This document shows positions 29,287-36,488 of a stretch of DNA of 43,652 nt, piece after piece. Origin of the DNA: a virus. Lineage: Duplodnaviria > Heunggongvirae > Uroviricota > Caudoviricetes. The stretch covers positions 1-43,652 of IMG/VR virus record IMGVR_UViG_2617270938_000005. One strand, 5' to 3'. Positions within the stretch are counted from its first letter, which is position 1; the number at the start of each line of letters is the position of its first letter. The position numbers and the translations under genes are program-made. The notes below the pieces were generated by a model. The model was not told where the DNA came from. It ran no database searches and worked only from the letters and a program-made list of their open reading frames with translations.

Positions 29287-29359
29287 GACTTCCCTCTCCC
29301 CCAAATAAAAAGGCCTGCGATTACCAGCAGGCCTGTTATTAGCTCAGTAATGTAGATGG

Positions 29360-29650
29360 TCATCTTTTAACTCCATATACCGCCAATACCCGTTTCATCG
29401 CGGCACTCTGGCGACACTCCTTAAAAACCAGGTTCGTGCTCATCTTTCCTTCCCGTTCTTCCCTGGTAGCAAACCGGTAATACACCGTTCGCCAGACCTT
29501 ACCTTCGATAACCAGAAGACCTGCCCGTGCCATTTTAGCCGCGGCCTGATTTATGCTGGTTACTGTTGCGCCTGTTAGCGCGGCAACGTCCGGCGCACAG
29601 AAGCTATTATGCGTCCCCAGGTAATGAATAATTGCCTCTTTGCCCGTCAT
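29360..29650 (-). CDS. ren: Ren protein
   Basis: Near-identical to lambda Ren. Confidence 0.85.
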   Translation of the reverse strand: MTGKEAIIHYLGTHNSFCAPDVAALTGATVTSINQAAAKMARAGLLVIEGKVWRTVYYRFATREEREGKMSTNLVFKECRQSAAMKRVLAVYGVKR

Positions 29651-30348
29651 ACACTTGCTCCTTTCAGTCCGAACTTAGCTTTGATTTCTGCGATCTTCGC
29701 CAGAGCCTGTGCACGATTTAGAGGTCTACCGCCCATGACAGGAAGTTGTTTTACTGGTTCAGGGATCGCCTCACCACGGTTAATTCTCGCAGTCATATGG
29801 ACAAGCTCATCTGCGGCCTTACGGCGTAATTCCGCATCAGTAAGCGCATTGGCCCGCATGTTCTGATACAGGTTGGTAACCAGCCAGTAGTGCGCGTTTG
29901 ATTTCCACGGATAAGACTCCGCATCCGGATACAGGCCTCGCTTCCGGCAATACTCGTAAACCATATCAACCAGCTCGTTGACGTTTGGCAGTCCGGCGAT
30001 AACGGATGCTTCTTCCCGGCACCATGCAACAAACTGCCCGGGTGATGGCAGAAATGGTCGATTCTGCCGACGGGCTACGCGCATTCCTGCGTTAACCTGT
30101 TCCATTGTGGTGATCCCGTTTTCCCGGAAAGCCAGAACCCACTGGCGGCGGATTTCGTTCAGTTCGTTCTGGTCACGGTTAGCCAGGCTCGCCGGGAAAG
30201 TTGCCAGTAACTGGCTGAACACACCGTTGATGATCTGCGCTACCTGCTGTACCTGCGGCTTTTCGTCGTACTGTTCCGGCATGTTGTTGGCGATCCGACG
30301 CATCTGCTCACGGTCAAAGTTAACCATCTGTGCGGCGATGTTTTTCAT
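29647..30348 (-). CDS. P: replication protein P (DnaB loader)
   Basis: Near-identical to lambda P. Confidence 0.9.
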   Translation of the reverse strand: MKNIAAQMVNFDREQMRRIANNMPEQYDEKPQVQQVAQIINGVFSQLLATFPASLANRDQNELNEIRRQWVLAFRENGITTMEQVNAGMRVARRQNRPFLPSPGQFVAWCREEASVIAGLPNVNELVDMVYEYCRKRGLYPDAESYPWKSNAHYWLVTNLYQNMRANALTDAELRRKAADELVHMTARINRGEAIPEPVKQLPVMGGRPLNRAQALAKIAEIKAKFGLKGASV

Positions 30349-31244
30349 AGATCCACCCCGTAAATCCAGTCTGTGTTTGTCAGGTCGAGTTTTGGTTTGC
30401 TTGCTGTCACGACTGCCTGTTGCTTGTTACGGTTGATTTCGAGCTGGGTCCACTTGTCGCGGAGTTTGGCCGGACTCAGCACGTTACCGGACCAGAAGTT
30501 GTCCTGGCAGGCCCAGCGGAAAAGCACACACATATCGCGGTGGTTACGTCCGTCACGTTCACGCATCAGGCGGATATCGTTAGCCCACCCAGCAAAATTC
30601 GGTTTTCTGGCTGATGGCGCGATGGTCTTCACCATGTCAAACATCCACTCTGCGGCGGTCAGGTCTTCTGCTGTTCCCCACTTGCTGCCGCTCTGAATTG
30701 CAGCATCCGGTTTAACCACAGAAAGATCGTTTTCTGGCTGGTCAGAGGATTCGCCAGAATTCTCGGACGAATAATCTTTTCTTTTTTCTTTTGTAATAGT
30801 GTCTTTTGTGTCCCCCTGTTTTGAGGGATAGCAATCCCCCAATTTGAGGGATGTTTTATCCCTCGTTTTAGGGGATTTTCCCTCGTTTTGAGGGATACAC
30901 CATTCTGAGATGTTTTTATTTGGTCCAAACATGCCGCCTTGCTGCTTGATAATATTCATTCTGACGAGTTCTAACTTGGCTTCATTGCACCGTTTGACAG
31001 GTAACTTTGTAATCTCGCTAAGTTGAGAATCGGTGATTCTGTCCATTGGTTTATTCCACCCATAGGTTTTACGCAGAATGGCAAGCAGCACTTTAAACTG
31101 TCGCTTGGTCAGATCTGCGCCCGAATAAGCCTCAAGCAGCATATTTGATAGTCTGGCGTAACCATCATCGAGATCTGCCACATTACGCTCCTGTCCGGCA
31201 AAGTTACCTCTGCCGAAGTTGAGTATTTTTGCTGTATTTGTCAT
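30345..31244 (-). CDS. O: replication initiator O
   Basis: Near-identical to lambda O; contains ori iterons. Confidence 0.95.
   Translation of the reverse strand: MTNTAKILNFGRGNFAGQERNVADLDDGYARLSNMLLEAYSGADLTKRQFKVLLAILRKTYGWNKPMDRITDSQLSEITKLPVKRCNEAKLELVRMNIIKQQGGMFGPNKNISEWCIPQNEGKSPKTRDKTSLKLGDCYPSKQGDTKDTITKEKRKDYSSENSGESSDQPENDLSVVKPDAAIQSGSKWGTAEDLTAAEWMFDMVKTIAPSARKPNFAGWANDIRLMRERDGRNHRDMCVLFRWACQDNFWSGNVLSPAKLRDKWTQLEINRNKQQAVVTASKPKLDLTNTDWIYGVDL
30770..30900. repeat. ori-lambda: four iterons (TCCCTCAAAACGAGGGA-like) plus AT-rich region inside O
   Basis: Plus strand CCCTGTTTTGAGGGATA, CCCCCAATTTGAGGGAT, ATCCCTCGTTTTAGGGGAT, CCCTCGTTTTGAGGGATA adjacent to T-rich tract. Confidence 0.85.
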
Positions 31245-31276
31245 AATGACTCCTGTGGATTGATCCAGTAATTCCC

Positions 31277-31573
31277 TCAGAATTGCATATCAATTTGCTT
31301 AGAGTCCCCGGCGGCCACCGGGGATTTTTTCTTTGTGATTCCATCAAGCGCATACTTAAAAGCCCTACTAATCGGACTGATGTCTGATGCCATTCCGAAA
31401 GCACACAAGACTGAAGCAATAAATCTCCAGTCCGTTCTGCTTATCTTCGATTCATGACAGCCAATCATCTTTGCCAGACCGCGCTGAGTAAGCGTTGACA
31501 GGTTGATAAGTAAATCTGTTTCTGCGCGATCAACGTCGCGCTGTGATAGTTTGCTGTAACTTGTTCGTTCCAT
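31277..31573 (-). CDS. cII: transcriptional activator CII
   Basis: C-terminus KKKSPVAAGDSKQIDMQF resembles lambda CII KKRPAATERSEQIQMEF; position after cro/nutR. Confidence 0.8.
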   Translation of the reverse strand: MERTSYSKLSQRDVDRAETDLLINLSTLTQRGLAKMIGCHESKISRTDWRFIASVLCAFGMASDISPISRAFKYALDGITKKKSPVAAGDSKQIDMQF

Positions 31574-31676
31574 TTCTTAAGATTTCCAATAGTGAATAGC
31601 TAGTTGAAAGGTATACGTGGAAACGCATATGGCCTTAGTTGGTCAGATATCTTTGAACTCGCTTTTCAGCGACGTA

Positions 31677-31703
31677 GGACGAATGTCCGTTGTTACAAAG
31701 AGC
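31677..31703 (-). promoter_or_regulatory. nutR (boxA GCTCTTTGTAACAACG plus boxB hairpin GGAC-AUUC-GUCC)
   Basis: Between cro stop and cII; matches nutL arrangement at 34344-34371. Confidence 0.55.
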
Positions 31704-31714
31704 GGCTCCGCTTA

Positions 31715-31930
31715 TTAAGCGGCTTTGTGTTCCGGCGGGAACACGTCATCAAGACTTACTTTTGCGCCTAACTTATTTAGGCACGCAACAAGAGCACGGC
31801 ATGTTTTAAGGTCTGGGAAGCGACGACCAGATTCCCAATGTCCGATAGCTCCCTGTGTGCATCCAACTGCCTTAGCAAGTGTTGTTTGAGAGATATTCAG
31901 TGACTCTCGATATTTTCGTAGGTTGCTCAT
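31715..31930 (-). CDS. cro: Cro repressor (HTH)
   Basis: 71-aa HTH protein divergent from cI; start at MSNLRKYRESL with GGAGGG RBS. Confidence 0.8.
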   Translation of the reverse strand: MSNLRKYRESLNISQTTLAKAVGCTQGAIGHWESGRRFPDLKTCRALVACLNKLGAKVSLDDVFPPEHKAA

Positions 31931-32040
31931 ATGCCCTCCATAGTAACCTCGAATAAAAAATACAATATGTACTTTCCAAATACAAGCAAAAATACACATT
32001 GTGCATGGATGGTTCCAGTACAGAGCGTAATAATAAGGAC
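31931..32040. promoter_or_regulatory. oR/pR/pRM region with TACAnnnnTGT-type operator repeats
   Basis: Repeats tacaatatgtact (31961-31973) and tacacattgtg (31993-32003); related sites in oL; candidate pR TTGTAT-17-TATTTT on minus strand. Confidence 0.5.
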
Positions 32041-32700
32041 ATGAAAATGAAATGGTATGAACTGGCTAGATCCAGAATGAAAGAGCTCGGCATAACTCAA
32101 GAGAAGTTAGCCGAAGAGCTAGGTATGACGCAGGGTGGGATTGGACACTGGTTGCGCGGATCTCGTCATCCATCTCTTAGTGATATTGGTGTGGTGTTTA
32201 AATACCTTGGTATTGATAACATATCATTCAACCACGACGGGACATTTTCACCTGTTGGCGAATACTCATCGGCCCCAGTTAAAAAACAATATGAGTACCC
32301 TGTATTTTCTCATGTTCAGGCTGGGATGTTCTCTCCAGAACTCAGAACCTTTACCAAAGGCGATGCGGAGAGATTGGTAAGCACAACCAAAAAAGCCAGT
32401 GACTCTGCATTCTGGCTTGAGGTTGAAGGTAACTCAATGACCGCACCAACAGGTTCCAAACCCAGTTTTCCTGACGGGATGTTAATTCTGGTTGACCCTG
32501 AGCAAGCTGTTGAGCCCGGCGATTTCTGCATAGCCAGACTTGGTGGTGATGAATTTACCTTCAAGAAACTGATCAGGGATAGCGGTCAGGTGTTTCTACA
32601 GCCACTAAACCCACAATACCCAATAATCCCATGCAATGAGAGTTGTTCCGTTGTGGGGAAAGTTATCGCTAGTCAGTGGCCTGAAGAGACGTTTGGGTGA
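32041..32700 (+). CDS. cI: CI repressor (HTH_XRE plus S24 LexA-like peptidase domain)
   Basis: N-terminal HTH; AG cleavage site; GNSM ... FKKL Ser/Lys dyad. Confidence 0.9.
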
Positions 32701-32746
32701 CAAGAAGCACAGGTATTAACAATAACTTTCATGGTGATACGAATCA

Positions 32747-33289
32747 GTGGCTAAAAAAGGCGACTTTAAGCCTACCCAGAAAGAGGTTGACCAAGCTATT
32801 ACTCGCTTGAAAAAAGTAACTTTTAGCGGAGTTACATGGACCGGAAGTGAGGGACGAACCCCAATCTGGTTTAAATTGGATCTCAAAGCTTTTGATGAAA
32901 TTGGCAACCCAATCACAGGCATAAGATTTATGCTTCACTGGCGTCCTCCTATCGTTGAAGGGGTGGATATAGTGAAGATTTCATTTGTGATGTTTCTTCA
33001 TGACAGGCGCATTTACGCGCTTGATCCGTACCCTGCGGATAACAAGCCACACCGTAATAAATCTATAGTGAACCATCCAGATTTTGTTGAGGTGGCTCGA
33101 GGTCCTCACTATCACATGTACTTCGAATCAGCTGGGGAAGAAATTGCACTTAAGCTTGAAACGAACATCAAGCCAGATGATTTTTTTGGCTACTGGAATT
33201 ATTTTTGCGAGGCGCTTAATATCATATATGAAGGCAGCCCACCTTTACCTAATCAAGATAAATCAGGTCAGTTATCATGGGAAATGTAA
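32747..33289 (+). CDS. hypothetical protein A of cI-linked two-gene cassette (rexA position)
   Basis: 180-aa ORF with GTG start 46 nt after cI stop; no recognisable family; overlaps downstream ORF by 13 nt. Confidence 0.5.
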   Translation: MAKKGDFKPTQKEVDQAITRLKKVTFSGVTWTGSEGRTPIWFKLDLKAFDEIGNPITGIRFMLHWRPPIVEGVDIVKISFVMFLHDRRIYALDPYPADNKPHRNKSIVNHPDFVEVARGPHYHMYFESAGEEIALKLETNIKPDDFFGYWNYFCEALNIIYEGSPPLPNQDKSGQLSWEM

Positions 33290-34053
33290 CGTGTTCAACA
33301 GTCATATCTAAGCTCGGGTTTGAATGCCACCCAATGAGCGACACGTTGCTGCGCGTTATTAGTCCATTCACATACTACGATGATTGTGAGCAGATAAGTG
33401 TATTCGTTCAAGAGATGAGTGGTCAGTATAGGGTTACAGACTACTGCGATACATTGATGAATATTGAATCACGCGGCATCCACCTGACTAAAAAGAAAAT
33501 TGATCTGATCAGGTCATCACTCGCTTCGCAAGGAATTTCATTAAATGACTCTGGAGAGATATCTGCGTGGGCAGATGAGTCGTCCGTTGGACAGGTAACT
33601 GCAAATGTTATTCGTGGTGGGATTCTTGCATCCGCCCAAACTGCTGATTGGTATGCTGAGGTCAAAGACGATAAGTTCGAAAAATGTGTAATCAGTTACT
33701 TAAAATCAGCAGGGCTTGGGAAGCGACTAGTCTTAAAGGAAAAAGTGAAAGGTATTAGTGGGCATAACATTACTGTTCCGTTAACGCTAAGGAATGAGTC
33801 TCGACTAATACCACCAAAACGCGGGTTTACGGTAAGCCTTGCCAGCAGTAAGGGATGGAATACTGCCCACTCAACAGTTGGGAAGATTGTTGACTTAAGT
33901 CAGGTCGTTCCTGACATAAACAATAGATTTGTAATAGTTGACAGCGATGGGTTAACACCTGAGCTACAGCAACTATCATTACTATTTAATGATACCGCAC
34001 GAGTGTTGCCATTCCATACCAGAGACTCTTGGATTGAGTCTCTGGTAGCCTAG
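33277..34053 (+). CDS. hypothetical protein B of cI-linked two-gene cassette (rexB position)
   Basis: 258-aa ORF (alternative start at Met 33334); followed directly by terminator; no recognisable family. Confidence 0.5.
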   Translation: MGNVTCSTVISKLGFECHPMSDTLLRVISPFTYYDDCEQISVFVQEMSGQYRVTDYCDTLMNIESRGIHLTKKKIDLIRSSLASQGISLNDSGEISAWADESSVGQVTANVIRGGILASAQTADWYAEVKDDKFEKCVISYLKSAGLGKRLVLKEKVKGISGHNITVPLTLRNESRLIPPKRGFTVSLASSKGWNTAHSTVGKIVDLSQVVPDINNRFVIVDSDGLTPELQQLSLLFNDTARVLPFHTRDSWIESLVA

Positions 34054-34083
34054 AAAAACCCGGCCTCAGCGCCGGGTTTTCTT
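34054..34083 (+). terminator. rho-independent terminator closing the cI operon (timm-like)
   Basis: CCCGGC-CTCAGC-GCCGGG hairpin followed by TTTTCTTTG. Confidence 0.75.
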
Positions 34084-34224
34084 TGCCTCACCCCCCACCT
34101 AAAGACACATAACCAAATGTATTTATTGAAAAATAAATAGATACAACTCACTAAACCACGCAATTCTGATCTCTCCTTACATCGCCGAGGCGATACACCC
34201 ACGCTAAAAAACAACACTATTAAA

Positions 34225-34297
34225 TACAAAGTGTTATAAAAAATCACCCCATTTTAGAACAAATCGTATTGACCCAATAAAGTACATATCGTACTAT
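34225..34297 (+). promoter_or_regulatory. oL/pL: TTGACC-17-TACTAT promoter with overlapping palindromic operator AGTAC-ATATC-GTACT
   Basis: -35 at 34269-34274, -10 at 34292-34297; operator 34281-34295 and tacaaagtgtta at 34225-34236. Confidence 0.6.
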
Positions 34298-34343
34298 TTA
34301 ACCGTCAGCAGGACGCTGGAAGCCAAACGGAACAGACTGGCAG

Positions 34344-34371
34344 GCTCTTTAAACAACGTCGAACTCTCGAC
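34344..34371 (+). promoter_or_regulatory. nutL (boxA GCTCTTTAAACAACG plus boxB hairpin GTCGA-ACTC-TCGAC)
   Basis: Between pL and N; parallels nutR. Confidence 0.55.
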
Positions 34372-34487
34372 TACGTGGCTGAAAAGCCAGATCACCCAAC
34401 CACATGAGCTGTGGGATGCAATGCCGAAGCAACCGTCTCAGGAGGAGCTTCGAGATTGCATCACCAAAGTTTATTCGGGAGGAATCT

Positions 34488-34760
34488 ATGTCCAGAAAAA
34501 CAGAATTTAAAGGCACCTCAGCTTCTCGTCGTAGAGCTCGTCGCGCAAACCTGCAAAGTCAGGAGGCGATTAGCTCCGACAAGCTACACAGACCAACCCC
34601 CTCTCGAGTGGTCTTGCAATGCAAGCGCAAACCAGCAATGAGAGCAGAAGTAATAACACTGACAACGTTGACCAGAAAATATGAAGGCTCAACTTGTCTT
34701 CCAAATGTAGCTCTTTACGCGGCAGGCTACAGGAAATCAAAACAACTGACAGCAAGGTGA
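34488..34760 (+). CDS. N: antitermination protein N (P22 gp24-like)
   Basis: Arg-rich motif SRRRARRANLQ; C-terminus LPNVALYAAGYRKSKQLTAR matches P22 gp24 LPGVALYAAGHRKSKQITAR; GGGAGG RBS. Confidence 0.8.
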   Translation: MSRKTEFKGTSASRRRARRANLQSQEAISSDKLHRPTPSRVVLQCKRKPAMRAEVITLTTLTRKYEGSTCLPNVALYAAGYRKSKQLTAR

Positions 34761-34818
34761 CTTGTGTTGGTCGCCAGAAAACGAAGGGCAAATCCATCGC
34801 ATTAATCTGAGGTGGCCC

Positions 34819-34983
34819 ATGAAGAACAGCATCAAGTGCCCGGTATGCGGTCGTGACTTCGATCCACGCACTCCGGTCTGCCACATCAGCAAGTATCACC
34901 AGTCAGCGAAGAACTGCGAGCTGGAGAAGATACGCGATGCCCGGCGGCAATATTTCAAAGTAACAGCGAGTGAGGTTCGGTGA
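34819..34983 (+). CDS. small zinc-ribbon protein
   Basis: 54 aa with CPVCG...C..H motif. Confidence 0.35.
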   Translation: MKNSIKCPVCGRDFDPRTPVCHISKYHQSAKNCELEKIRDARRQYFKVTASEVR

Positions 34984-35321
34984 TGGAAAATAAAACGGCT
35001 AACGGGATGTACGTACTGCGTGGTGAGCTGAAAAAGGGACTGATAGCGGAGCTGGTAAAGGCATACGACCAGCTGACTCAGGAGTCAGAAAAATTAAAGA
35101 TCCTCGGACTCAGGTATAACACCCCTCGACGCATTGTTTATGGCTTTATGTATGAGGTTGCAGCATTAACCGTCAAGGAAATTATGTTTAAAACTGAGGG
35201 TGGCTTTTACATCCCACAGGATGACTTCGAATCGAGCGACGATATCGATTCATTAGCCAAAGAGATCATCGATGTAATTGACTGTAATGGCGCATTCCTT
35301 GAGCGCCTTCTTAAGGAGTAG
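34983..35321 (+). CDS. hypothetical protein
   Basis: 112-aa ORF, TGATG start/stop overlap. Confidence 0.35.
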   Translation: MENKTANGMYVLRGELKKGLIAELVKAYDQLTQESEKLKILGLRYNTPRRIVYGFMYEVAALTVKEIMFKTEGGFYIPQDDFESSDDIDSLAKEIIDVIDCNGAFLERLLKE

Positions 35322-35323
35322 CC

Positions 35324-35515
35324 ATGAAAAAACTGTATGAAAAACTCCCGGTCGTAGTGCAGGGGTCATTTTGGGTCTGCTTATCACTGCGGCCATTCTT
35401 CTGTCTACCCCGCCAGTCGTCATGTTTCTTCGTTGGTGGTTCAGAGTTTGGGGTGTCTGATCGGCGCAAGCATTACGCACAGAACGAATCGAGCGGGTCG
35501 AGTGGCCTGCGGTGA
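35324..35515 (+). CDS. small hypothetical protein
   Basis: 63-aa ORF with AAGGAG RBS. Confidence 0.35.
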   Translation: MKKLYEKLPVVVQGSFWVCLSLRPFFCLPRQSSCFFVGGSEFGVSDRRKHYAQNESSGSSGLR

Positions 35516-35535
35516 ATAAACAAAGGGGTGAGGGT

Positions 35536-35718
35536 ATGGAAAATTTGGACAATGAACTGAAAAGAGTAGTTCAGGAACTGGCCAATGAAGAAGGCATCAG
35601 TTTTGCCGATGCCGTGGACGTTTCGATTAAGACGCTTCGTTACGAAATTCAGCATAGAAAGTCTTTTAATGGGTCGCCTGACCCCGATGGAGGCGCATCA
35701 GGAGTAGAGGTACGCTGA
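35536..35718 (+). CDS. small hypothetical protein
   Basis: 60-aa ORF with GGGTGAGGG RBS. Confidence 0.3.
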   Translation: MENLDNELKRVVQELANEEGISFADAVDVSIKTLRYEIQHRKSFNGSPDPDGGASGVEVR

Positions 35719-35864
35719 CCAAATATCGAAGCGGCAAACAAAAATCGCTGGGGTTTGACGATTGGTGTAACTGGATAGATAGATACGGAACTTGGTGGGA
35801 TAAATAACAGGTAACTTAAGCGTATTTACTTTCGCAGCAAACCACTTATTTGAGAGGAATTAAT

Positions 35865-36488
35865 ATGTCATCAATCCGCTTAACTACGAGAATGAAAGAG
35901 AAAATCGCTCGTAACGCTTTAATTAAGTCTGGGGTTTTCACTGAACTTGAAGAAGTAACAAAGTTAAAGAACCAGCTTGCACTTGACGCCAGAGTTATTG
36001 CGTTTGGCGGTAAAAAGAAAACTGAGGAAGTGGATCAGTTATCATCCAAGTTGGTAGCTATAAGTGAAGAACTTGAAAAGATGGGATGTTCATTTTACTC
36101 ATACGATGTTAGTTCTACTTCAATTTATCTGACTGTATCTGGCAGAAGGGTTGGATGGCATTCATATGGGAAAGACGGCAACGGCGAAGATATATTGCTC
36201 CCTACTCCGACAAAAGATAAATGCATGTTTGACGCAGAGCACGAAATAACAAAAAGGTTTGATGAAATCTGCGCATTGCAACAAAAACTTGAAGTCAGGA
36301 AAAAGGATATCGAATCAAATGTATGGGCTGCTTTGAACTCAGTCACAACAGTTAAGCGACTTATTGAAGTTTGGCCTGAAAGCAAAGAATTGCTACCAGA
36401 AGAAGCAGATAAAGCAAGTACAGCACTTCCTGCTTTACGGGTAGAAGATTTGAATAAGATGATTGGACTTCCTTCCGAGGCCGCATAG
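35865..36488 (+). CDS. hypothetical protein
   Basis: 207-aa ORF with GAGAGG RBS. Confidence 0.4.
   Translation: MSSIRLTTRMKEKIARNALIKSGVFTELEEVTKLKNQLALDARVIAFGGKKKTEEVDQLSSKLVAISEELEKMGCSFYSYDVSSTSIYLTVSGRRVGWHSYGKDGNGEDILLPTPTKDKCMFDAEHEITKRFDEICALQQKLEVRKKDIESNVWAALNSVTTVKRLIEVWPESKELLPEEADKASTALPALRVEDLNKMIGLPSEAA

Follow-up and report, generated by a model that had tools for sequence, protein, structure and literature searches.

In phage H-19B, the nutR site at which the antiterminator N acts folds into two hairpins, a spacer hairpin that is protected by NusA and Rho and a boxB hairpin whose loop is protected by N (PMC3526286), and the boxB complexes of known structure cited in a survey of GNRA motifs contain either pentaloops (lambda, P22) or a hexaloop (phi21) (PMC12550061). 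Here we consider the corresponding region of a virus of the Caudoviricetes, IMG/VR record IMGVR_UViG_2617270938_000005, of which the whole stretch of 43,652 nucleotides (nt; positions 1 to 43,652) was analysed and is called the window below. The interval 31677-34371 is, in all likelihood, the module by which a lambdoid prophage governs immunity and early antitermination, laid out in the orientation opposite to that of the lambda map. Its boxB elements would be two GAAA-capped hairpins (31672-31659 on the minus strand and 34376-34389 on the plus strand), situated four bases past hairpins with AUUC and ACUC loops that a sequence-only reading of the same DNA had taken for boxB and that we assign instead to the spacer hairpins of the H-19B/933W nut family, with no part in specificity. 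We put the probability of this explanation at roughly 0.85, a single figure for the repressor switch, the anatomy of the nut sites and antitermination taken together.

Each nut site is composed, in the direction of transcription, of a boxA, a short spacer hairpin, the tetranucleotide TACG and a second hairpin. In nutR (31659..31704, minus strand), the boxA CGCTCTTTGTAACAA (31704-31690) is followed by the spacer hairpin GGAC-ATTC-GTCC (31688-31677), TACG (31676-31673) and the hairpin TCGCT-GAAA-AGCGA (31672-31659), and in nutL (34344..34389, plus strand) the boxA GCTCTTTAAACAA (34344-34356), which equals the rrn boxA consensus plus one A, precedes GTCGA-ACTC-TCGAC (34358-34371), TACG (34372-34375) and TGGCT-GAAA-AGCCA (34376-34389). 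Both boxA sequences, GCUCUUUAAACAA and CGCUCUUUGUAACAA, are close to the published consensus CGCUCUUA / UGCUCUUUA (PMC2724277). The sequence-only reading had located the two sites correctly: its boxA-like motifs GCTCTTTGTAACAACG (31703-31688, minus strand) and GCTCTTTAAACAACG (34344-34358, plus strand) are present together with the adjoining short hairpins as described, the second motif overlapping its hairpin by one G. The interval that it reported extends no further than the outer end of either spacer hairpin and consequently leaves out both downstream GAAA hairpins. The composite pattern GCTCTTT-N2-3-ACAACG-N10-14-TACG-NN-GCTGAAAAGC (in short form boxA, N10-14, TACG, NNGCTGAAAAGC) occurs twice in the window, at 34344-34387 on the plus strand and at 31703-31661 on the minus strand, and never in 100 shuffles; both occurrences lie in transcript orientation, one downstream of pL and the other downstream of cro. 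The minimum-energy fold of nutR includes the spacer hairpin as well as boxB, and nutR and the homologous sites of H-19B, epsilon34 and STEC1589 all fold as two hairpins. A scan of positions 30500-36000 against Rfam at E<=1 yielded no match to a nut or boxB family and two chance matches only (snR191 and U4).

Several lines of evidence point to the second hairpin as boxB. In the oligonucleotide table of the Sen laboratory for H-19B, CACAATGGACATTCGTCCTACG is named 'nutR spacer' and TACGTCGCTGACAAAGCGAGTCCC 'nutR boxB' (PMC3526286), and GGACATTCGTCC, the sequence that had been proposed as boxB, carries the spacer label among these oligonucleotides. The AUUC hairpin of the window is base for base the nutR spacer hairpin of H-19B, and the window nutR boxB is that of H-19B minus the loop C, with no other boxB difference. 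The same nutR spacer hairpin is found in H-19B, 933W, mEp234, SPN9CC, epsilon34, STEC1589 and the window despite two different arginine-rich motifs in N, and at 80 IMG/VR loci that encode an N with 97% identity or more to that of the window the nutL spacer loop reads ACTC, CTC, ACAC, GCAC or ATC above an invariant boxB. Lack of conservation in relatives with the same N was the very outcome that the sequence-only reading had named as refuting its boxB hairpins, which therefore fail its own check. The nutR boxB 14-mer TCGCTGAAAAGCGA is present in identical form in the GenBank record of epsilon34, where it is annotated as 'putative NutR - boxB', and a novel BoxB specificity was predicted for that phage from its divergent N terminus (Villafane et al. 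2008, PMC2629481). The GAAA loops are GNRA tetraloops, one base below the GAAAA of lambda, and the boxB core of the window, CUGAAAAG, has one A fewer than lambda CUGAAAAAG (CU-GAAA-AG vs CU-GAAAA-AG); the earlier statement that boxB was unlike that of lambda is reversed by this comparison.

The loop of the downstream hairpin varies together with the arginine-rich motif of N. The motif RRRxRRAx(L/V)Q is accompanied by GAAA or GCAA at both nut sites in the window, 2851, STEC1589 and epsilon34, and the motif RRRERLKAKALANG by GACAA at both nut sites in H-19B, 933W and mEp234; SPN9CC, whose motif is of the RRRERLKAKALANG type, has GACAA at nutR and no clear GACAA hairpin at nutL, where the odd loop GCTC-CGTCAAC-GAGC fits neither class cleanly. 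Pattern scans of IMG/VR gave a motif of the RRRxRRAxLQ type in 24/24 distinct tetraloop nutL/N pairs and of the RRRERLKAKAL type in 42/42 distinct GACAA pairs, hence no crossover in 66 distinct pairs, although these pairs are related sequences that do not count as independent (some 13 motif variants for the tetraloop and some 7 for the pentaloop). The loop class is uniform across all sites in 182 of the 183 loci with at least two sites. Anatomy, conservation and the co-variation of motif with loop are matters of direct observation, and the boxB stems likewise covary at their outer two pairs (UGGCU, UCGCU, CGGCU, AGGCU, UAGCU, CAGCU), the second stem pair being G-C in nutL and C-G in nutR of the window, a compensatory change, and the inner stem GCU...AGC being fixed in all boxB classes. 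Stem pairs were counted by script, and a MAFFT alignment of the nut sites, in which the one-base loop gap was misplaced, was set aside. A scan of genome contigs with the N alignment returned 11 loci, some of them contaminant, which gave lambda-type and P22-type motif/loop pairs in numbers too small for statistics; the P22-type motif GNAKTRRHERRRKLAIERD and boxB GCGCUGACAAAGCGC are not those of the window, from which they differ in both loop and motif.

Two observations from these scans deserve mention in their own right. The sole mixed locus of the 183, on an IMG/VR contig (L202, 1509-1790, plus strand), has two tandem nut-like sites 227 nt apart on one strand, with a tetraloop boxB, CAGCT-GAAA-AGCTG, in one and an H-19B-type pentaloop, GCGCT-GACAA-AGCGC, in the other. 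Short contigs in non-enterobacterial species-representative assemblies of GTDB (L092 and L095 in a 'Segatella copri' metagenome-assembled genome, and L093, of 394 bp, in 'Xanthomonas pisi') carry an E. coli-type N/nut, one of them with an N 97% identical to that of the window, which is probably a matter of binning error or contamination.

It would take a great deal to make the hairpins directly after boxA the boxB of a P22-like N, with AUUC and ACUC as a new 4-nt loop, and we regard that reading as highly improbable. These hairpins are real, adjoin boxA, are stable for their size (fold energies of -3.8 and -4.3 kcal/mol) and belong to a position at which a stem of at least 4 bp ending right before UACG is kept in 72 of the 73 distinct nut sites of the superfamily. 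However, the AUUC and ACUC loops have no motif in common, the nutL loop varies freely under the same N, the nutR hairpin stays unchanged under another N motif, and the H-19B counterpart is labelled spacer, the protection by N falling there on the next hairpin; across the family, moreover, first-hairpin stems and loops are unrelated in sequence, in contrast to the downstream loop, which follows the motif without exception. With the GAAA hairpins as boxB, the next question is whether they define a specificity of their own. Here the balance of the sequence evidence is close to even: an N with the RRRxRRAx(L/V)Q motif, lambda-like and devoid of Trp, may form with a GAAA or GCAA tetraloop boxB a distinct specificity class, heterospecific to lambda, P22, phi21 and H-19B/933W, which would be the single modestly new feature of the locus. 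A less probable, though quite conceivable, account is that the tetraloop boxB is open to cross-recognition with the N of lambda or of H-19B/P22 through a GNRA-like fold, GAAA and GACAA being products of drift linked by descent. In favour of cross-recognition, the arginine-rich motif is identical to that of lambda at 8 of 14 positions, the boxB cores are one A apart, the inner stem is common to all classes, and the lambda N peptide is said, from work by Legault et al. in 1998, to tolerate a GAAA tetraloop in vitro. It is opposed by the lack of crossovers and the concordance of the loci, by the fact that a change in nutL is always matched in nutR, a pattern difficult to account for in the absence of selection, and by the absence from the window motif of a Trp at the position where the Trp of lambda N stacks on the boxB loop. 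For one class at least, the extra base is known to make contact, since the looped-out C of GACAA touches the peptide in the P22 complex (PMC12550061). As the known boxB complexes have penta- or hexaloops, a natural true tetraloop would represent a small structural variant; we found no experimental characterisation of a tetraloop-boxB class in the literature searched.

The function of the spacer hairpin has also to be weighed. Its stems are of at least seven unrelated kinds (GGAC, GGTGA, GTCGA, GAUUC(A/G), GGCC, GAAGAU and GGUGAA) and its loops of more than 20, so that, as far as sequence comparison goes, its structure is conserved and its sequence is not. A role as a required protein-binding element, that is, a loading platform for NusA or Rho and not a mere insulator against mispairing of boxA with boxB, seems less likely than not. 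NusA and Rho do protect the spacer of H-19B nutR (PMC3526286), and the loop region ACAUUC of the window nutR resembles the lambda nutR spacer CACAUUCCA, which binds NusA and whose AUU is critical for binding (PMC2724277), a likeness that makes a role for NusA at nutR possible. The nutL spacers, on the other hand, have no AUU-containing motif, the loops are hypervariable, and the window nutL contains a competing pairing of boxA with boxB, in keeping with an anti-misfolding role: the best fold of the isolated nutL RNA (34344-34389) has -15.1 kcal/mol vs -12.8 kcal/mol for the two-hairpin fold, and in it boxA (GGCU.CUUU) pairs with the 3' half of boxB (AAAG.AGCC) and boxB is not formed. Formation of boxB in nutL would accordingly depend on co-transcriptional folding or on an occupied boxA. 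Neely and Friedman reportedly found in 2000 that NUT is inactivated when one arm of the H-19B dyads is broken and regains activity with a compensating change, and that the dyad can be deleted with little effect, a result that favours the anti-misfolding role and counts against the binding-element alternative. The same study is said to have found the boxA of H-19B degenerate and dispensable, and the system independent of NusB/S10; with a near-consensus boxA in the window, dependence on NusB/S10 may differ.

The antiterminator N (34488..34760, plus strand) is a protein of 90 aa that matches Pfam N_peptide (PF25694, E=1e-31, residues 1-90) and PHROG 271, and its start was set by a GGAGG Shine-Dalgarno sequence and by homologues beginning with M(T/S)R(R/K)T. 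It comprises an arginine-rich motif, FKGTSASRRRARRANLQS (about residues 8-25, core SRRRARRANLQ), a lambda-like RP..L..RKP motif (about residues 33-53) that aligns locally with a segment of lambda N which we take to be its NusA-binding region, and a C-terminus, CLPNVALYAAGYRKSKQLTAR, of the P22/H-19B type. By sequence, the closest characterised full-length relative is H-19B N (42% identity, E=2e-24, with 37 central residues fewer in the window protein), and the identity of 40% with P22 gp24 (E=1e-12) lies mostly in the last 24 residues (79% by tblastn). The description of this protein as P22-gp24-like therefore holds for the C-terminal 24 residues and the overall 40%, and fails for the RNA-binding motif, which, on alignment with P22 gp24, lambda N and phi21 N, is closest to lambda: over 14 positions it is identical to lambda at 8, to phi21 at 7 and to P22 and H-19B at 5 each (a hand count). 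A sequence search of the PDB with N gave no match at E<=10. The leader of N (34390..34487, plus strand) contains a long imperfect hairpin at about 34404-34475 (161-nt fold of -55.7 kcal/mol, z = -3.85); the leader of lambda N is processed by RNase III and controls N translation, and a regulatory role may be envisaged for the present hairpin by analogy.

Overlapping the N stop, at 34757-34810 on the plus strand, a shifted frame reads VTCVGRQKTKGKSIALI* and resembles the C-terminus of lambda N and presumably that of phi21 N; in two N homologues from Lonsdalea (L101 and L102) a single frame encodes both C-terminal motifs. We considered whether recoding at the stop of N might give access to VTCVGRQKTKGKSIALI as a functional tail and decided against it, because unrelated DNA directly follows the stop in many phages with the same N, and the frame looks like a relic of a mosaic junction.

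Set beside the described systems, the window would be a member of the lambda-type N/nut antitermination group, to judge from its N_peptide domain, two placed nut sites, boxA and covarying boxB loop. With H-19B and 933W it has in common the succession of boxA, spacer dyad hairpin, UACG and 5-bp boxB, together with an identical nutR spacer (GGACAUUCGUCC) and boxB stem (UCGCU/AGCGA), and with H-19B also cII-tR1-nutR DNA at 96.5% identity and an N that starts with M(T/S)R(R/K)T.FKG and ends in CLPNVALYAAGYRKSKQLTAR. It differs from both in its GAAA tetraloop where they have GACAA, in the motif RRRARRANLQ where they have RRRERLKAKALANG and in its unrelated cI, cro and operators, and from H-19B in an N that is 37 residues shorter in the middle and in a near-consensus boxA, that of H-19B being degenerate (GGUGAAUAUACAA, CGCUAUUUUCACAA). 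As regards the H-19B/933W nut subtype, the sequence has the dyad spacer hairpin but not the pairing of GACAA with RRRERLKAKALANG. In epsilon34, gp43 has a motif of the same class (GRRRERRAALQ), both nut sites have a tetraloop boxB and the boxB of nutR is identical to ours, whereas N is 120 aa long with an H-19B-type central region, nutL has an H-19B-type boxA and spacer (GAUUC...GAAUC) and repressor and operators differ. The likeness to lambda extends over the boxA-spacer-boxB logic, the arginine-rich motif (aligned with lambda N residues 5-18), the RP..L..RKP motif, the C-terminal domain of cI, the replication and nin genes and the tripartite oR and oL over pR/pRM and pL; unlike lambda, the window has no fifth loop base, a Glu aligned with lambda Trp18, an extra spacer hairpin, a P22-type C-terminus of N, and an unrelated cI N-terminal domain, HTH_3 Cro and operators (15 bp, those of lambda being 17 bp). 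P22 itself has the motif TRRHERRRKL and a GACAA pentaloop, and an N of E. albertii with the P22-type arginine-rich motif (L094) is accompanied by a nutL with no spacer hairpin between boxA and boxB.

The repressor cI (217 aa; 32047..32700, plus strand, with an alternative ATG at 32041; Pfam HTH_3 and Peptidase_S24) is a domain chimera, in which the lambda C-terminal domain for oligomerisation and cleavage (about residues 80-217, about 99% identical; 93% for the coding DNA) is joined to a different helix-turn-helix (HTH) domain (N-terminal 78 residues, about 30% identical to lambda cI). Lambda-style cooperative binding might be retained with different operators. The relatives at 70% identity, in HK244 and mEp234, simply carry a lambda-type cI. 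Cro (72 aa; 31715..31933, minus strand; Pfam HTH_3, 4e-12) and cI have in common the recognition-helix motif TQG(G/A)IGHW. A perfect 6-bp hairpin, CCGCTT-ATT-AAGCGG (31708-31722), lies across the cro stop directly upstream of the nutR boxA and is scored by the terminator scan as terminator-like on the plus strand.

The operator regions oR (31959..32031) and oL (34223..34295) share the core AGTACATAT(T/C)GTA that the sequence-only reading had quoted, the full form being ARTAC-N5-GTAYT and the core TACA-N3-YGTA; the pattern TACAnnnnTGT that was given along with it matches neither region and occurs twice elsewhere vs 3.9 times expected by chance, the half-sites being three bases apart and not four. 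In oL, the operators are oL1 AGTACATATCGTACT (34281-34295, 0 mismatches to ARTAC-N5-GTAYT), oL2 AGAACAAATCGTATT (34256-34270, 1 mismatch) and oL3 AATACAAAGTGTTAT (34223-34237, 2 mismatches), and in oR they are oR1 AATACAATATGTACT (31959-31973, 0 mismatches), oR2 AATACACATTGTGCA (31991-32005, 2 mismatches) and oR3 AGTACAGAGCGTAAT (32017-32031, 1 mismatch). At up to one mismatch the full form has five sites in the window, four of them in oR and oL, and at up to two mismatches 6/52 sites fall within the 206 of 43,638 positions (0.5%) that make up these regions. Among 49-51 relatives, substitutions in oR1-3 and oL1 are nearly all confined to N5, the R position or the flanking bases: the oR half-sites are conserved next to a hypervariable flank at 31974-31978, with a G-to-A change within R in oR3 (51 relatives), changes in oL1 are rare, and oL2 and oL3 are more variable in their outer half-sites. 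An additional operator at 31979-31993 was rejected, with three mismatches and a half-site variable among relatives. A promoter scan placed pL at 34269..34297 on the plus strand (-35 TTGACC, 17-nt spacer, -10 TACTAT), overlapped by oL1 and oL2, with oL1 between the hexamers and overlapping the -10. A putative pR, read from the sequence at 31957..31985 on the minus strand (-35 TTGTAT at 31985-31980, 17 nt, -10 TATTTT at 31962-31957), stands to oR1 in the same geometry as pL to oL1, and a candidate pRM would have its -10 overlapped by oR3 and its -35 abutted by oR2.

The relatedness of the motif/loop pairs, the nutL of SPN9CC and the competing nutL fold all weigh against the explanation put forward here, and the switch region adds to them. 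The matches of oR2 and oL3 to the operator consensus are weak, the operators are spaced by 25-26 and 32-33 bp vs about 23-24 bp in the annotated operators of lambda, and the putative pR is a poor match to the promoter consensus, below the threshold of the scan. It is also from sequence that we infer the binding of N, the dependence on Nus factors and the occupancy of the operators.

Around the module, P (29647-30348) and O (30345-31244) of the lambda-like replication arm and cII (31277-31573; Pfam Phage_CII, 2e-31) lie on the minus strand, and on the plus strand lies a lambda-type oop unit (31219-31335; promoter TTGAGT, 17 nt, CATAAT; terminator 31301-31335) antisense to the 3' end of cII. In blastn comparisons the nin genes and the ren-P-O segment up to 31338 are 97-98% identical to lambda, the homology of the replication arm stopping immediately beyond the oop terminator, and the block 29294-31705, which contains ren, cII, tR1 and boxB and reaches as far as the nutR spacer, matches H-19B at 96.5% identity. 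The parts specific to the immunity type are the nutR boxA, cro, oR, the N-terminal domain of cI, oL, pL, nutL and the N-terminal part of N. The view that replication and nin genes are essentially lambda was well founded, as was that of a mosaic replacement, a non-lambda immunity and antitermination module being set within a lambda-like replication/nin backbone; the proposed non-lambda immunity also agrees with our analysis, in that the DNA-binding domain of lambda cI, the Cro of lambda and its 17-bp operators are all absent here.

The control region as a whole (repressor, operators, N and two nut sites) is ordinary and of a known and widespread immunity type. Apart from the cassette in the rex slot, the DNA of the module is 96-97% identical to that of 2851, 1717, YYZ-2008, Stx2 II, Stx1-converting phage, the PA series, 2B8 and E212 (Stx, Shiga toxin), and its sequence assigns cI, cro, oR, oL, nut and N to the type of the Stx phages 2851, 1717, YYZ-2008, Stx2 II and Stx1-converting phage. 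Module sequences at 96-100% identity are present in more than 60 deposited phages; on comparison of the repressor with known immunity types, 63 phage records contain a cI with at least 95% identity and 60 an N with at least 95% identity, and IMG/VR holds 451 relatives of N. Among 5,426 complete E. coli genomes, pL-nutL-N (at least 80% coverage) is found in 759 (about 14%) and nutR-cro-oR-cI (N-terminal) in 773, and the exact arrangement with the rex-slot cassette in 13. Our literature search returned no relevant operator or immunity study of this cI, and none on the nut sites of VT1-Sakai.

The slot of rexAB is occupied by a two-gene cassette (32747-33289 and 33277-34053, plus strand) that is part of the cI operon and stands outside the nut and operator logic. 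It is followed by a terminator-like hairpin with a T-run (34059-34085), read from the sequence and absent from the list of the terminator scan. Its genes match Pfam DUF6978 (weakly) and DUF1828 and PHROGs 2017 and 1960, and have weak matches to the PADLOC candidate defence system PDC-M24 (PDC-M24A, E=3.8e-4; PDC-M24B, E=6e-7), by which the cassette looks like a prophage-borne candidate for defence. A megablast search of 50,697 phage records found nothing that matches its DNA, although both flanks are matched there.

Taken together, the likely circuit is one in which cI and Cro would bind three 15-bp operators at oR and three at oL, overlapping pR, pRM and pL, and in which the pL transcript would carry nutL and the pR transcript nutR. 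In each nut site, the consensus-like boxA, as the presumed site of NusB/S10, would be followed by a spacer hairpin with a free loop, UACG and a 5-bp boxB stem capped by GAAA, the tetraloop of which would be bound by the arginine-rich motif of N (SRRRARRANLQ); NusA may then be contacted by the middle of N and RNA polymerase by its P22/H-19B-type C-terminus, and the resulting complex, resistant to termination, would read through tR1 and the leftward terminators. For annotation, motif-based nut calls that name the first hairpin after boxA as boxB would be wrong for this large family of Stx and other lambdoid phages. The medical relevance is indirect: in many Stx phages with the same N/nut pair, N-dependent readthrough would be the first step toward the expression of Q and stx. 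In lambda, the extruded base of the boxB loop helps to recruit NusA. If the tetraloop class is true, many phages encoding Stx1 or Stx2 would carry it, as would about 14% of the complete E. coli genomes, and the extruded base would be dispensable in a natural system, perhaps compensated by the spacer hairpin and the consensus boxA. The tetraloop class may in this respect serve as a natural test of the part that the extruded boxB base plays in the assembly of N with NusA, and would refine the textbook mechanism without adding a new one.

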